Assembly: GCA_902613705.1 (NCBI GenBank)
Contig: CACMIG010000001.1
Coordinates: forward strand, 40,102 to 104,101
Source of the DNA: an uncultured SAR86 cluster bacterium
GTDB lineage: Bacteria > Pseudomonadota > Gammaproteobacteria > Magnimaribacterales > D2472
Length of the DNA stretch: 64,000 bases
Direction of reading: 5' to 3'
Each line of letters opens with the position of its first letter. Positions within the stretch are counted from its first letter, which is position 1. The position numbers were made by a program, and so were the translations under genes. Shown piece after piece: positions 53,130 through 56,507 of this stretch. Below the pieces are notes generated by a model that did not search any database, was not told where the DNA came from, and worked only from the letters and a program-made list of their open reading frames with translations.

Positions 53130-53975
53130 ATGTCGACTAAATTATTGAGACAAATTAAAAATTCTCTTCCTGATTTAAGAAAATCTGAAAAAATTGTTGG
53201 AGAGTATATTTTAGAAGATCCAAAATCAATTATTACTATGAAAACTGCAGAAGCTTCAGAAGCAATGGGTATTAGCGAACCAACATTAATAAGATTCTGT
53301 AAAGCAATTGGATTTTCAGGTTTTCAAGAACTTAAAATTAATTTGTCCCAGCAGCTAGCAGCTGACGATTATTTTGTCATGTACGAAATAACAGAAGACG
53401 ATTCAATTCATGAGCTATGTGAAAAAGTTTTTGATACAACAATAAGTGAGATACTTAATGTAAGGTCACAGCTTGATCAAAGTATTCTTGAAAATGCCAT
53501 TGAAGCTCTTGTGAATGCAGATAGAGTTGAATTTTATTCATTTGGTGGTTCAGCACCGGTTGCAATGGATGGTCAGCATAAATTTTTTAGATTGAAAATA
53601 CCCTCATCATATATTTCTGACCCACACCTACAATTTATGTCTGCGAATTCTTTAAGCAAAAATGATATTGTTGTAGCAATCTCTCAATCTGGAACAACTG
53701 CAGCCTTAATTGAAAGTGTCAAAATAGTTAGAAAAAATGGTGTTAAAGTTATTGGAATAATGCCAGGCGATACACCACTTGCAGATATTTGTGATTTTCC
53801 TCTAACAATTAATATTGGAATAAATAATAGAATTTCAAAACCTCTTACGTCCAGAATTGCTTATACAGCGGTAGTAGATGTGCTAACGATGGGAGTAGCT
53901 CAATTAAAACCTGAGGCACAGGATCACCTATATAACATTGCGGACAGCCAAAGGTCTTTAAAAATAGATAATTAA
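53130..53975 (+). CDS. MurR/RpiR family transcriptional regulator (HexR-like)
   Basis: An N-terminal HTH (SEPTLIRFCKAIGFSGFQELK) plus a C-terminal SIS domain (AISQSGTT). Confidence 0.8.
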   Translation: MSTKLLRQIKNSLPDLRKSEKIVGEYILEDPKSIITMKTAEASEAMGISEPTLIRFCKAIGFSGFQELKINLSQQLAADDYFVMYEITEDDSIHELCEKVFDTTISEILNVRSQLDQSILENAIEALVNADRVEFYSFGGSAPVAMDGQHKFFRLKIPSSYISDPHLQFMSANSLSKNDIVVAISQSGTTAALIESVKIVRKNGVKVIGIMPGDTPLADICDFPLTINIGINNRISKPLTSRIAYTAVVDVLTMGVAQLKPEAQDHLYNIADSQRSLKIDN

Positions 53976-54589
53976 TATATAGCTGATTCTCTAAACCAGA
54001 GATTTACTGCCCATTTTTCGCCAGAAATTACTGGAGATCCTGCATGAAGAGCATCAGGATTAATTTCAGTTGTTCCCTCAATACAATTATGAAAAACTAC
54101 AACATCTCCTTTATTAGGTTTTACAGAAACATTTATCTCAGGGAAATCAGTCTCTCCGCCCTCTTCAACATCATTTAAATATGCTAAAGCTGTTACCATT
54201 CTTTGTCCTCCAGGAAACCAATTGTTTTGGCCTTCTTTGGTAGTTTTATCAAACGCATCAAAATGAGGCTTATATTCATTTCCTGGCCCATAATAGACAA
54301 GTTGAAATTGCTCTGCGTTATTAATAGGCATTTGGACCAAAACAGAAAATCTCTTACTTACTTCATGAATAACTTCATTTGCACTATGCTCAAGCCAACA
54401 ATAGTCATTAGTTCTGCTTGAATGAACTTCATGCTCAGAATCAGTTATTACAGTTGCCCTTTGCATCTTGCCTTTTCCATGCTCAACAAATGCTTCACAT
54501 TCATCATTAGATAGAAAATTAGATACAACATACACAACCGGATTGGCTGAATACATTGTTACGTTTTCAGATATTTTTTTTGGTTCCAT
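53972..54589 (-). CDS. Prolyl 4-hydroxylase-like 2OG-Fe(II) oxygenase (P4Hc type)
   Basis: 205 aa with no signal peptide. HxD in KPHFDAF, the distal His in ALHAGSPV and the 2OG-binding Lys in GEKWAVNLWF. Overall it resembles viral/algal/bacterial P4H alpha-like enzymes. Confidence 0.8.
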   Translation of the reverse strand: MEPKKISENVTMYSANPVVYVVSNFLSNDECEAFVEHGKGKMQRATVITDSEHEVHSSRTNDYCWLEHSANEVIHEVSKRFSVLVQMPINNAEQFQLVYYGPGNEYKPHFDAFDKTTKEGQNNWFPGGQRMVTALAYLNDVEEGGETDFPEINVSVKPNKGDVVVFHNCIEGTTEINPDALHAGSPVISGEKWAVNLWFRESAIY

Positions 54590-54632
54590 TTACGATTCAA
54601 ATTATACTATTTTTGTACATTAATAATAATTT

Positions 54633-55625
54633 TTGATGAAAATATTTATATCAGTAGCATCCTATCAAGATCCCTTGTTGGAAACGACCATTAATAGCGC
54701 ATATAAAAATGCTAAACATCCTGAAAACTTAGTCTTTGGTATATGCGATCAGTCGTCAAATCCTATAAATATTGATTCTTTTAAGTTTTCTAATCAATTT
54801 AAATACGATCATGTAAATCCAATAGATTCAAAAGGTCCTTGTTGGGCTAGAGCAAGAATTCAAAAAAGCTTTAATGATGAAGATTTCTATCTTCAAATCG
54901 ATTCTCATATGCAATTTGAAGAGAATTGGGATTCATATTTAATTAAATATATTGAAAAAATAAGGGATATTGATTCAGAAATACATCAGAGTCCAATTAT
55001 CACCTGCTATCCTCGTGCCTTCAATGTAATAGACTTAGAAAGAGGTGAATTTGATCTCAATAATGCCGAAACAAGAACTGATGCTATTTCATATAGAAAA
55101 GACAGCATGTTTATAAAGAATAATTTCTCAAGACAAATTGGCTCAATTGCATCCAAAGAAATAACTCATGGGTATTTAATTGCTGCTGGTTGCATATTTA
55201 CTACTGGTGATTTTGTAAAAAAAATTCCTTATGATCCAGAATTTTATTTCTATGGTGAAGAAATATCCTTAATGCTTAGATCATTTACAAGAAACTTAGG
55301 AATTTTTCATATTCAGTCACTACCAATTTTTCACCTGTATGCTGAGCTTTCGAATATCAAAAGAAAGCTTCATTGGAATGAAGATGAAGACTCAAATAGA
55401 GATGTTAAATGGTATCAAAGAGAAGAAAAAAGTATCAATAAATTAAATGCATTGATAAATGACGATATAGACGGTGCTTTTGGCCTTGGTGATAAAAAAA
55501 CATTAGATGATTATGAGTATCTTTCAGGTGTAGATCTTAAAAATAAAGTAGTTACTGATGAAAATAAAGCATTTACAGCAAAATTTATTTCAACTCTAGA
55601 TTGGAGAGAATCGCCTTTTAAATAA
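54633..55625 (+). CDS. GT-A glycosyltransferase resembling the Skp1-hydroxyproline GlcNAc-transferase family (Pfam GlcNAc/PF11397, GT60-like)
   Basis: 330 aa with no signal peptide or TM helix. The N-terminus IFISVASYQDPLLETTINSAYKNAKHPENLVFGICDQS and the DxH metal site LQIDSHMQFEENWD match my recollection of this family. The start is either TTG 54633 or ATG 54636. Confidence 0.55.
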   Translation: MMKIFISVASYQDPLLETTINSAYKNAKHPENLVFGICDQSSNPINIDSFKFSNQFKYDHVNPIDSKGPCWARARIQKSFNDEDFYLQIDSHMQFEENWDSYLIKYIEKIRDIDSEIHQSPIITCYPRAFNVIDLERGEFDLNNAETRTDAISYRKDSMFIKNNFSRQIGSIASKEITHGYLIAAGCIFTTGDFVKKIPYDPEFYFYGEEISLMLRSFTRNLGIFHIQSLPIFHLYAELSNIKRKLHWNEDEDSNRDVKWYQREEKSINKLNALINDDIDGAFGLGDKKTLDDYEYLSGVDLKNKVVTDENKAFTAKFISTLDWRESPFK

Positions 55626-55672
55626 TTCTTAAGAACAGATGTTAAAATTATCTAAATAATTCTGGAGAAAAT

Positions 55673-56089
55673 ATGAGTGAAGAAATCAAAAAATTCTTTA
55701 AAACCTATACAGACTTCGTAACCAAAGTTACTAGCGATCCTAGCTTGGACCTTGAGTCTTTAAAACAAAGTTTTATTGAAATTGAAAAGAATTCAGATAT
55801 TAAGACTCCCAGGCTTTTAACAGCAGCATTGGGATTGGGAAGTGAAACAGGTGAGTTTGTGGAAATAGTAAAAAAAATGTTTCTCCAAGGAAAGCCTCCC
55901 TCTGAAGAAAACATATTTCATATGAAAAGAGAGCTTGGAGATATAATGTGGTATTGGGTAACTGCTTGTGCCTCATTAGGGCTTGATCCATATGAAGTAA
56001 TCAGTGAAAACCAAGAAAAACTTGCTGCTAGATATGGAGAAAAATTTGAGGTTAAGAGAAGCGAGGTCAGAAAAAAAGGCGATCTTTAA
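55673..56089 (+). CDS. MazG-like nucleotide pyrophosphohydrolase (small all-alpha NTP-PPase)
   Basis: 138 aa. GLGSETGEFVEIVKK and RELGDIMWYWV (EExxE/D-type metal sites). A GGAGA RBS is present. It resembles the small MazG of marine phages and their hosts. Confidence 0.7.
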   Translation: MSEEIKKFFKTYTDFVTKVTSDPSLDLESLKQSFIEIEKNSDIKTPRLLTAALGLGSETGEFVEIVKKMFLQGKPPSEENIFHMKRELGDIMWYWVTACASLGLDPYEVISENQEKLAARYGEKFEVKRSEVRKKGDL

Positions 56090-56144
56090 TTTCAAATATG
56101 GAGCATCTTAAGAATCTTAATATTGTGTTAGAGGTATCATAAGA

Positions 56145-56507
56145 ATGATTACGGTATTGTCTTCAATATATTTTATTTATGGTTTTATCCTATTTTATAC
56201 ATACTCAAAAGGTTACAGTCTCTTAAGATATCTTCTAAAAAGAAAAAATATTAATGTCTATATCTCAATTGAGCTAATTTTTGTAATCTTATGCTCTTTA
56301 ATTGTTTTTACATCACAGCCGTTGAACTGGGTCGTTGGACTAATAATGCTATTCCACGTAGCTGGAATAATATGGCTTATTTCTAATCCAGAAAGCTTTT
56401 ATTCTATGGCAGAAGATCCTTCTATAGACATTGATTCATTAGAAATCTCATCTGCTATGGTTGTAATTGGATTGGGTGTATTTGTATATTTTTCAACAAT
56501 ATTTTAA
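56145..56507 (+). CDS. Hypothetical membrane protein, about 4 TM helices (unknown family)
   Basis: 120-aa hydrophobic ORF. Only ORF length and hydrophobic periodicity support it. Confidence 0.4.
   Translation: MITVLSSIYFIYGFILFYTYSKGYSLLRYLLKRKNINVYISIELIFVILCSLIVFTSQPLNWVVGLIMLFHVAGIIWLISNPESFYSMAEDPSIDIDSLEISSAMVVIGLGVFVYFSTIF

Follow-up and report, generated by a model that had tools for sequence, protein, structure and literature searches.

Hydroxyproline (Hyp)-linked glycosylation is, to our knowledge, known only from eukaryotes, where it occurs on plant and algal wall proteins and in the oxygen switch of protist Skp1, and for most bacterial prolyl hydroxylases we know of no physiological substrate. 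In the plant pathway a prolyl 4-hydroxylase (P4H) of the Cr-P4H-1 type acts first and is followed by Hyp O-arabinosyl or O-galactosyl transferases. On Skp1 the hydroxylase PhyA acts before the GT60 enzyme Gnt1, and in some protists the two are combined in a single protein (PMC8724618). Here we analyse a stretch of 64,000 nucleotides (in the following the window) from an uncultured SAR86 cluster bacterium (contig CACMIG010000001.1, positions 40,102 to 104,101), in which a P4H gene and a glycosyltransferase (GT) gene lie head-to-head. Few heterotrophic clades of the surface ocean are as abundant as SAR86. An earlier reading of the sequence, referred to below as the original prediction, had seen in this pair a candidate cytoplasmic system for the hydroxylation and subsequent glycosylation of proline, together with the neighbouring MazG gene.

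We propose that the P4H forms 4-hydroxyproline on a protein and that the GT caps this hydroxyl with an N-acetylhexosamine (HexNAc), a reading to which we assign a probability of roughly 0.58. It is favoured because the hydroxylase is identified as a peptidyl P4H, the GT is predicted to have the fold of polypeptide GTs, related GTs are fused to three kinds of protein hydroxylases, and Gnt1 provides a precedent. That P4H and GT are functionally coupled in the first place is highly probable from the comparison of their loci.

Hydroxylase and glycosyltransferase of the SAR86 locus

The locus comprises the following features (aa, amino acids; ORF, open reading frame; TM, transmembrane segment).

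53972-54589, minus strand: P4H, 205 aa, catalytic domain only; predicted collagen-type (P4Hc) peptidyl-prolyl 4-hydroxylase
54590-54635: divergent P4H/GT spacer, AT-rich; 43 bp up to the TTG, 46 bp up to the ATG at 54636
54633-55625, plus strand: GT, 329-330 aa; PF11397/GT60-like GT-A glycosyltransferase of cytoplasmic type
55673-56089, plus strand: MazG, 138 aa; cyanophage-type nucleoside triphosphate (NTP) pyrophosphohydrolase, 47 bp 3' of the GT on the same strand
56145-56507, plus strand: 120-aa hydrophobic ORF (4-TM), matching no Pfam family

All four ORFs are located exactly as the original prediction had them, strands included. The oxygenase exceeds the PF13640 threshold by far (63 bits, cut-off 27), so that its designation as a P4H-like oxygenase dependent on 2-oxoglutarate (2OG) and Fe(II) was correct. 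Its best sequence match in the PDB is the P4H of Bacillus anthracis (3itq/5hv0; E 1.9e-32, 115 bits), and it also matches Chlamydomonas P4H-1 (2jig/3gze; E 8e-32), the catalytic domain of human C-P4H alpha-2 (7zsc; E 3e-27) and the P4H of PBCV-1 (E 9e-19). Even at E<=1 no PHD/EGLN-type enzyme appeared among the PDB sequence matches, all of which were collagen, algal, viral, bacterial or transmembrane P4Hs. The sequence motifs that had been quoted for the enzyme are all present, namely the Fe ligands H109/D111 (the HxD in KPHFDAF) and the distal H182 (ALHAGSPV) as well as the 2OG-binding K192 (EKWAVNLW). In a residue alignment Y106, E93 and R130 stand opposite Tyr140, Glu127 and Arg161 of Cr-P4H, of which Tyr140 touches the proline to be hydroxylated in a peptide complex (PMC9676403). 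The catalytic columns are kept in 74-77 of 78 GT-linked P4Hs, E93 and R130 in 77 of them. Because of its near kinship to peptidyl P4Hs with solved structures and activity assayed on peptides, and of the equivalents of the Cr-P4H peptide contacts, the window oxygenase is assigned to the collagen/algal-type P4Hs, a peptidyl-proline clade, and not to the PHD/PhyA type. A clade acting on free amino acids or nucleic acids, which would have spoken against the predicted function, is not where it falls.

The GT scores 137.4 bits against PF11397, 'Glycosyltransferase (GlcNAc)' (cut-off 21; E 1.1e-39; GlcNAc, N-acetylglucosamine), which bears out the predicted family, and close relatives are labelled 'GlcNAc-transferase family protein' by NCBI. 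The DxH metal site expected from the sequence is formed by D90-S91-H92, residues kept in 258, 246 and 260 of 262 family members, respectively; H234 is kept in 255 and H247 in 248 of them, and W99-D100, E209-E210 and R216 in at least 90%. An AlphaFold2 (AF2) model of the GT (pLDDT 85, pTM 0.89) has as its top PDB fold matches the polypeptide N-acetylgalactosamine (GalNAc) transferases T2/T4/T12, TgGalNAc-T3 and PGANT9 (E ~4e-9, TM-score 0.5-0.59), while the teichoic-acid GTs RmlT and TarS rank behind them. Sequence identity to the fold matches is 11-16%, and in sequence searches of the PDB the GT, MazG and the OXY4-type fusion P0175 remained without a significant match. Membership in PF11397 and the polypeptide-GT structural neighbours set the enzyme apart from the polysaccharide and lipid GT families, and the fold of the model together with the partner domains described below points to a polypeptide as acceptor.

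The TTG start of the GT at 54633 is directly followed by an ATG at 54636. Since SAR86 orthologues align at this ATG and a database protein 98% identical to the GT has 329 aa, the real start is probably 54636. The predicted spacer of 43 bp is correct up to the TTG, but the actual spacer is more likely ~46 bp long. A Kyte-Doolittle scan for 19-residue segments detected zero hydrophobic segments in P4H, GT and MazG and about four in the 120-aa ORF; at the level of such a scan, the absence of signal peptides and TM segments from the first three proteins and the 4-TM description of the last hold. No NCBIfam model covers P4H, GT, MazG or the 120-aa ORF.

Linkage of P4H and GT within and outside SAR86

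A scan for GT homologues, with one genome per GTDB species, returned 79 loci, 49 of them SAR86 or SAR86-like and 30 non-SAR86; the best match to the GT locus (98% identity) is the SAR86 single-cell genome AG-360-N22. Gene order was determined by tblastn of the window proteins against all loci. In all 48 SAR86 loci that reach the P4H position, two complete chromosomes included, the P4H lies on the minus and the GT on the plus strand, and MazG (+) follows 3' of the GT in all 47 that reach the MazG position. The order in SAR86 is UvrD-HexR-P4H(-)-GT(+)-MazG(+), with DctP also in the syntenic neighbourhood, and one further, more distant SAR86-type contig has the same gene order. Within SAR86 the GT shows 47-98% identity, the P4H 54-100% and MazG 67-99%. 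The P4H-GT spacer measures 39-63 bp (median 51) in 44 SAR86 loci, and the gap between GT and MazG has a median of 30 bp. An alignment of the 44 spacers revealed a conserved core block within each SAR86 subclade. In the window the core AAATTATACTATTT at 54599-54612 contains TATACT on the plus strand and TATAAT on the minus strand, which makes the spacer a putative promoter region, although promoter-like matches here do not exceed chance. Judged by sequence and gene order, the pair behaves as a vertically inherited core feature of SAR86 and not as an island or a recent mobile insertion.

The trio is also kept on contig JAYNUL010000257.1 (L016 1-2232), binned as Candidatus Neomarinimicrobiota, with 57% (GT), 79% (MazG) and 41% (P4H) identity to the window proteins. 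Because its GT groups inside the SAR86 clade, this contig may be misbinned.

Conservation in SAR86 is by itself synteny and no proof of coupling. The whole DctP-UvrD-HexR-P4H-GT-MazG neighbourhood is syntenic, function is not separable from descent there, and the GT evolves faster than the P4H, as the identity ranges show. The adjacency could reflect inherited gene order, with the P4H modifying a target of its own, for example a translation factor, which is the reported target of other bacterial prolyl hydroxylases, and the GT an unrelated acceptor. We consider such an uncoupled pair improbable: the same pairing is found in picocyanobacteria and on another bacterial contig, fusions exist in Alphaproteobacteria and others, and the short-spacer head-to-head arrangement recurs in cyanobacteria.

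P4H homologues near the GT were sought by an iterative search with hidden Markov models (jackhmmer) of all ORFs in 158 fetched loci. Among the 30 non-SAR86 genome loci, a P4H is adjacent or fused to the GT in eight. Five picocyanobacteria (L052-L055, L069) have P4H and GT head-to-head, in L053 with a spacer of 39 bp. Convergent pairs occur in picocyanobacteria as well: in L061 and L064 a GT-methyltransferase fusion stands beside a convergent P4H gene, which suggests a module of three activities. An alphaproteobacterial metagenome-assembled genome (L074) carries both domains in one 625-aa ORF among bacterial neighbours (H+-PPase, Dps, WrbA, ParDE-like, MetC), and the oxygenase half of this fusion again belongs to the collagen type, with matches at E 2e-22 to the P4H of B. 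anthracis and to human C-P4H. On another bacterial contig (L166 2795-5954) an oxygenase gene, a further ORF and the GT gene are co-directional. In this oxygenase of 461 aa a small domain at the N-terminus is combined with a P4H domain of collagen type and with another, oxygenase-like domain that has an HxD...H. The middle ORF (168 aa) is built of (GAGV/GVDP)n repeats that include X-Pro-Gly units, and it coincides with a tandem DNA repeat (periods 12, 24 and 30 bp). It may encode a substrate, or it may have been called as a gene in error.

In a rough neighbour-joining tree of the GTs, the oxygenase-linked ones occur in no fewer than five separate clades, distributed over both main branches, and the SAR86 P4H is only ~30% identical to other GT-linked P4Hs, which is below its identity to the B. 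anthracis P4H. The association is therefore either of great age or has come together several times, and in both cases it speaks for a function. A typical genome has a few PF13640 genes among thousands, so that the chance of such a gene lying within two genes of a given gene is, by our own rough estimate, well below 1%, against the eight of 30 non-SAR86 genome loci observed, to which the fusions add. A pairing no more frequent than expected by chance, which would have counted against the original prediction, is not what we observe, as the co-occurrence reaches far beyond SAR86.

Non-SAR86 GT-linked P4Hs have a small helical domain before the catalytic domain, with the motif W..W...N..RGC....I...L...GF, which is unmatched by Pfam. 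It is located at L053 672-1562 (N-terminal ~100 aa), L074 9992-11869 (residues ~325-400) and L166 2795-4180 (N-terminus), is absent from the 205-aa SAR86 P4H and might serve in substrate recognition or docking. A Burkholderiaceae GT that is 38% identical to the window GT and has no oxygenase partner (L047 9977-20907) is flanked by a MacB/ABC exporter on one side and a cadherin/Ig adhesin of 3,154 aa on the other. A GT-oxygenase fusion (L159 1-7824) faces, in head-to-head orientation, a two-partner-secretion transporter of ShlB type and a protein of >1,482 aa. Both are possible, weak hints at large secreted adhesins as targets in some lineages. None of the adhesin, two-partner-secretion or repeat-ORF contexts (L047, L159, L166) occurs in SAR86. 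In a Thermoflexus metagenome-assembled genome (L051 3376-6215), two tandem GT60-like genes are preceded by a gene for a DUF6065 protein (E 1.4e-51).

Fusions were collected by a search with the L074 fusion, their domains being taken from precomputed Pfam strings. Seven homologues have the same GT-P4H architecture, and the Pfam strings of the multidomain relatives combine PF11397 with PF13640, PF13640+PF13661, PF13621/PF08007 (JmjC/cupin), GT2, methyltransferases or peroxiredoxin. The GT is N-terminal and the partner C-terminal in 104 of 125 scored proteins. Typing of 111 non-GT regions gave 21 collagen-type P4Hs, 27 oxygenases of a second, PF13640/PF13661 type, 4 JmjC domains, 49 methyltransferases and 10 others. 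Matches of the fused JmjC partner are JMJD5, JMJD7 and FIH, all of which hydroxylate proteins, and the neighbours of three fusions inspected are bacterial (ShlB/POTRA, HisKA, MFS, CsgG). The commonest partner, a class-I methyltransferase, is found in Magnetospirillum, other Alphaproteobacteria and picocyanobacteria (e.g. the P0158-P0240 group, L061 9989-11617 and L079 94-2505).

A less biased census, in which the stand-alone window GT was compared with 1.84 billion 50%-identity representatives, yielded 3,680 relatives with E<=1e-3, of which 2,249 reach E<=1e-10; a fused P4H-like oxygenase is present in 20 of the 150 best census representatives. In the giant proteins P0247 (2461 aa), P0249 (2022 aa), P0252, P0274 and P0284 two to four PF11397 domains in tandem precede a P4H domain of collagen type, to which some add a second oxygenase domain. 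Some giant PF11397 proteins combine three to four tandem GT60 domains with two oxygenase domains, and other long members bear GT2, O-FucT or, in one protein, a PLOD-type GT domain.

The methyltransferase fusions, with close to half of the typed partner regions, represent a combination common in natural-product tailoring. As no substrate protein has been identified either, the pair might instead tailor a small molecule made without the ribosome, or else a free amino acid; a Hyp-containing metabolite or a glycosylated osmolyte would be examples. We regard this as very improbable, given that no genes for non-ribosomal peptide synthetases, polyketide synthases or precursors of ribosomally synthesised and post-translationally modified peptides flank the SAR86 pair, that the P4H belongs to the peptidyl clade and is not among the free-proline hydroxylases, and that the fused JmjC partners resemble protein hydroxylases while the other fused domains are of protein-glycosylation types. 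That the two enzymes form one functional module, as the original prediction held, is supported by their conservation across SAR86, by their adjacency in other phyla, where it arose independently, and by the recurrent fusion of the genes.

MazG, neighbouring genes and phage relatives

MazG matches PF03819 (35.4 bits, cut-off 22) and phrog_229 (E 8.5e-41), and shows 54-58% identity, across 92% or more of its length, to the MazG proteins of the cyanophages Syn33 and S-RIM12 and of Atu_ph07. Although similar in sequence to cyanophage MazG (Syn33, S-PM2, S-RIM12 type), the window MazG is a chromosomal SAR86 core gene behind a glycosyltransferase gene, with no evident mechanistic link to the pair. 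GT and MazG are probably co-transcribed in SAR86. Outside SAR86, no MazG homologue was found near the pair by jackhmmer in the 158 loci. Its membership of the module, which the original prediction had included, is uncertain, and we rejected it as unproven since MazG adjoins the pair in SAR86 only. On the SAR86A scaffold JH611157.1 (L010 11030-12175) MazG is duplicated and the first copy is fused in frame with a C-terminal GT fragment (229-aa ORF), which points to local duplication in tandem or else to an artefact of assembly.

The 4-TM ORF was rejected as a module member as well, because it is restricted to one SAR86 subclade and parted from MazG by insertions in some genomes. The gap between both genes (window ~56090-56144) is variable, as seen in L002 11466-13236, L004 11476-13244, L011 11454-13222 and L007 11476-18644. 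The insert in these four loci holds genes for an SDR (261 aa) and a Zn-ADH/quinone-oxidoreductase-like protein (326 aa); that of L007 is ~5 kb longer and includes a KAP-NTPase-like fragment and a 624-aa membrane protein.

The flanks of the locus in the window consist of ordinary chromosomal genes, encoding a DctP-type solute-binding protein, UvrD, a HexR/RpiR regulator, a 3-hydroxyisobutyrate-dehydrogenase-like protein and an NMO-type protein. The HexR/RpiR-family gene (53130-53975, plus strand) and the P4H gene are convergent, with stop codons overlapping by 4 bp (53972-53975), and this junction is kept across SAR86. The G+C content is flat over the region (~0.32-0.36), and the pair has the same value as its flanks.

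GT60-like genes are also found in viruses. A large viral GT clade has a backbone with PhoH and Hsp20. In another phage lineage the GT gene lies between the genes for the large subunit of ribonucleotide reductase (RNR) and for glutaredoxin/RNR small subunit, two genes after a gene for PRA-PH of the MazG superfamily, and another phage GT stands among the T4-like genes gp23, UvsW and UvsY (phage GT coordinates L164 5001-6032, L167 5001-6035 and L168 5001-6005). Jumbo Xanthomonas and Stenotrophomonas phages likewise carry a GT60-like gene. The window GT matches phrog_24687 and the P4H phrog_61. Identity of the window P4H to phage P4Hs does not exceed 30% across most of its length. None of 79 viral GT loci (L080-L158) has a P4H beside the GT. 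A recent derivation of the pair from phages, in line with the suggestion that the module may be phage-derived, is not supported by these results, and a recent phage-island origin was rejected in view of flat G+C, fixed synteny and the viral loci without P4H.

A phage connection would also underlie a different function of the trio, namely modification of nucleotides or nucleic acids, in which a base would first receive a hydroxyl from the oxygenase and then a sugar from the GT, with MazG cleansing the nucleotide pool, comparable to TET/JBP enzymes acting with a glucosyltransferase. The likeness of MazG to cyanophage MazG, the phrog matches of GT and P4H, and the phage lineage with the GT60-like gene between the RNR subunits near PRA-PH would be in line with it. 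PADLOC also matched the P4H, solely with a generic 81-position CAS-associated 2OG domain model, and gave no match for GT, MazG or the 4-TM protein. The oxygenase, however, is close to peptidyl-prolyl hydroxylases, with the peptide-contact residues kept, and not TET/JBP- or AlkB-like, and the structural kin of the GT are polypeptide GTs. Moreover, no viral GT locus has a nearby P4H or this MazG, MazG is unlinked to the pair outside SAR86, and the pair has a fixed chromosomal position and host-like G+C. We therefore hold this function to be the least probable of those discussed here. An anti-phage defence system was rejected too, as PADLOC gave only the generic match.

Proposed reaction and comparison with known systems

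The favoured reading, sequential formation of Hyp and of HexNAc-Hyp, would make P4H and GT a two-enzyme protein-modification module in the cytoplasm. From the family of the P4H and its conserved residues, the first step would be the conversion of one or more exposed prolines of a protein to 4-hydroxyproline with O2, Fe(II) and 2OG. In the second step, proposed on the basis of the family and fold of the GT and its recurrent physical linkage to hydroxylases, the GT-A enzyme would use a UDP-sugar and a divalent metal at the DxH...H site to place a monosaccharide on the new hydroxyl. We infer this order of reactions and the Hyp-O-sugar linkage on a protein target; the donor would most likely be UDP-GlcNAc, by family precedent. 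In SAR86 the pair would be transcribed divergently from the ~46-bp spacer, with MazG probably on the GT transcript. The SAR86 pair can be viewed as one case of a broader theme in prokaryotes, the coupling of PF11397 GT domains to protein hydroxylases, be they collagen-type P4Hs, oxygenases of the second P4H-like type or JmjC enzymes.

Several observations weigh against this reading. No substrate protein was identified; the window contains, as candidates for a Pro-rich substrate gene, only short, probably spurious Pro-dense ORFs, and no bacterial Hyp-glycoprotein was found in the literature searched, the coverage of which is incomplete. A scan for promoters and terminators between 53000 and 57500 did not exceed shuffled expectation (17 found, 20.7 expected), and the AF2 model of the 625-aa GT-P4H fusion (P0121 with seven homologues; pLDDT 63, pTM 0.43) is too poor to show a shared active-site cleft. 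Beside its intact GT, the P4H of contig L016 is devoid of the Fe ligands H109 and H182 and of the 2OG lysine K192; to judge from these losses it is probably inactive, and the GT may work without an active P4H in that lineage. An oxygenase partner is lacking in 22 of the 30 non-SAR86 genome loci, as it is in the viral loci, and GT60 also includes Ser/Thr-directed polypeptide GlcNAc-transferases (PMC8724618). Because of these enzymes and of the many members without oxygenase partner, the PF11397 fold needs no hydroxylated acceptor in itself, and the family also holds hydroxylase-independent members.

The main alternative draws in part on the same observations. Both enzymes could act on the same target protein or proteins, though not in sequence on one residue: the GT would modify Ser/Thr or another hydroxylated residue, close to the Hyp or irrespective of it, and Hyp would perhaps be a mark for recognition or gating. 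The Thr/Ser-directed alpha-GlcNAc transferases of GT60, the GT family members without oxygenase partner and the case of L016 agree with it, as does the fact that the best fold matches of the GT are Ser/Thr-directed polypeptide GalNAc-transferases. On the other hand, fusion recurs specifically with hydroxylases of three folds or types, which is most simply understood if their hydroxyl is the acceptor, and Gnt1, the only characterised P4H-partnered GT60 enzyme, acts on Hyp. We consider a sugar on Ser/Thr unlikely, if less so than the other alternatives, and prefer the sequential modification of proline.

Extended beyond the pair, the proposal states that bacteria have hydroxylation-dependent O-glycosylation by PF11397 GTs adjacent or fused to protein hydroxylases, and that SAR86 has a core, vertically inherited version which forms glycosyl-Hyp on a housekeeping or envelope protein in dependence on O2, Fe and 2OG. 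For this wider statement we see the chances as evenly balanced. We found no description of a bacterial P4H/GT60 module, although with the incomplete coverage of the literature a prior mention is possible. If the proposal is true, prokaryotes gain a new post-translational modification and a core gene pair of SAR86 gains a function, whose dependence on O2, Fe(II) and 2OG could link protein state to iron or carbon/nitrogen status. Some 3,700 sequence clusters would then share the logic of a hydroxylase that makes the acceptor and a GT60 enzyme that caps it, including those with JmjC hydroxylases and the giant proteins with several GT and two oxygenase domains. Culturable cyanobacterial carriers, namely Vulcanococcus limneticus LL (L054), Cyanobium sp. 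NIES-981 (L069) and Synechococcus sp. GreenBA-s (L052), offer experimental entry points.

Among single enzymes, the P4H of B. anthracis (3itq, 5hv0) shares its single-domain size (~210 aa) and catalytic residues with the window P4H; we know of no GT partner described for it. The animal polypeptide GalNAc-transferases of GT27 and the protist alpha-GlcNAc-transferases of GT60 have a GT-A fold, a DxH...H site and protein acceptors, as proposed for the modelled window GT. In contrast to the latter, they are Ser/Thr-directed enzymes of the Golgi and have a signal anchor, to which those of GT27 add a lectin domain. The fused bacterial forms resemble PLOD3/LH3, where a 2OG protein hydroxylase is fused to a GT that glycosylates the hydroxylated residue, but LH3 is a metazoan enzyme of the endoplasmic reticulum lumen that acts on lysine/hydroxylysine with a GT of another family.

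With the plant and green-algal pathway of Hyp-rich glycoproteins, the window pair shares a Cr-P4H-1-type P4H, including the equivalents of Tyr140, Glu127 and Arg161, and the logic of Pro, Hyp and O-glycosyl-Hyp. The plant enzymes differ in being membrane-anchored in the endoplasmic reticulum and Golgi and in acting on secreted proteins, and their Hyp-GTs belong to families other than PF11397.

A close parallel is the Skp1 pathway of Dictyostelium, Toxoplasma and Pythium. There, too, a prolyl hydroxylase dependent on 2OG/Fe and a DxH transferase of PF11397/GT60 are linked genetically, both being soluble cytoplasmic proteins without signal anchors. Fusion into one polypeptide occurs in protists for the Skp1 pathway (PMC8724618) and in bacteria for the enzymes described here. 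The hydroxylase of the window is, however, of the collagen/algal type (P4Hc) and not of the PHD/PhyA type, which also counts against a Hyp-specific transfer, as it is the PhyA type that partners the only characterised Hyp-specific GT60. No counterparts of the extension enzymes PgtA/AgtA/Glt1/Gat1 lie beside the pair in SAR86, and its neighbourhood there has no further GT, while some non-SAR86 GT relatives do carry GT2 or O-FucT domains. A further difference is the mostly N-terminal position of the GT in the bacterial fusions (104 of 125 scored proteins). Skp1 and SCF ligases are eukaryotic and Skp1 is not expected as a target in SAR86; since bacteria have no Skp1, the bacterial target must be a different one. 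The likeness to PhyA/Gnt1 stressed by the original prediction stands for the GT family, the cytoplasmic type of the proteins and the coupling, and fails for the hydroxylase. Because the latter is collagen-type, the system is, as far as the sequences tell, analogous and not orthologous to the Skp1 pathway. The eukaryotic PhyA/Gnt1 switch may descend from, or may have arisen in parallel to, such prokaryotic modules, and the evolutionary origin of Skp1 modification becomes testable.

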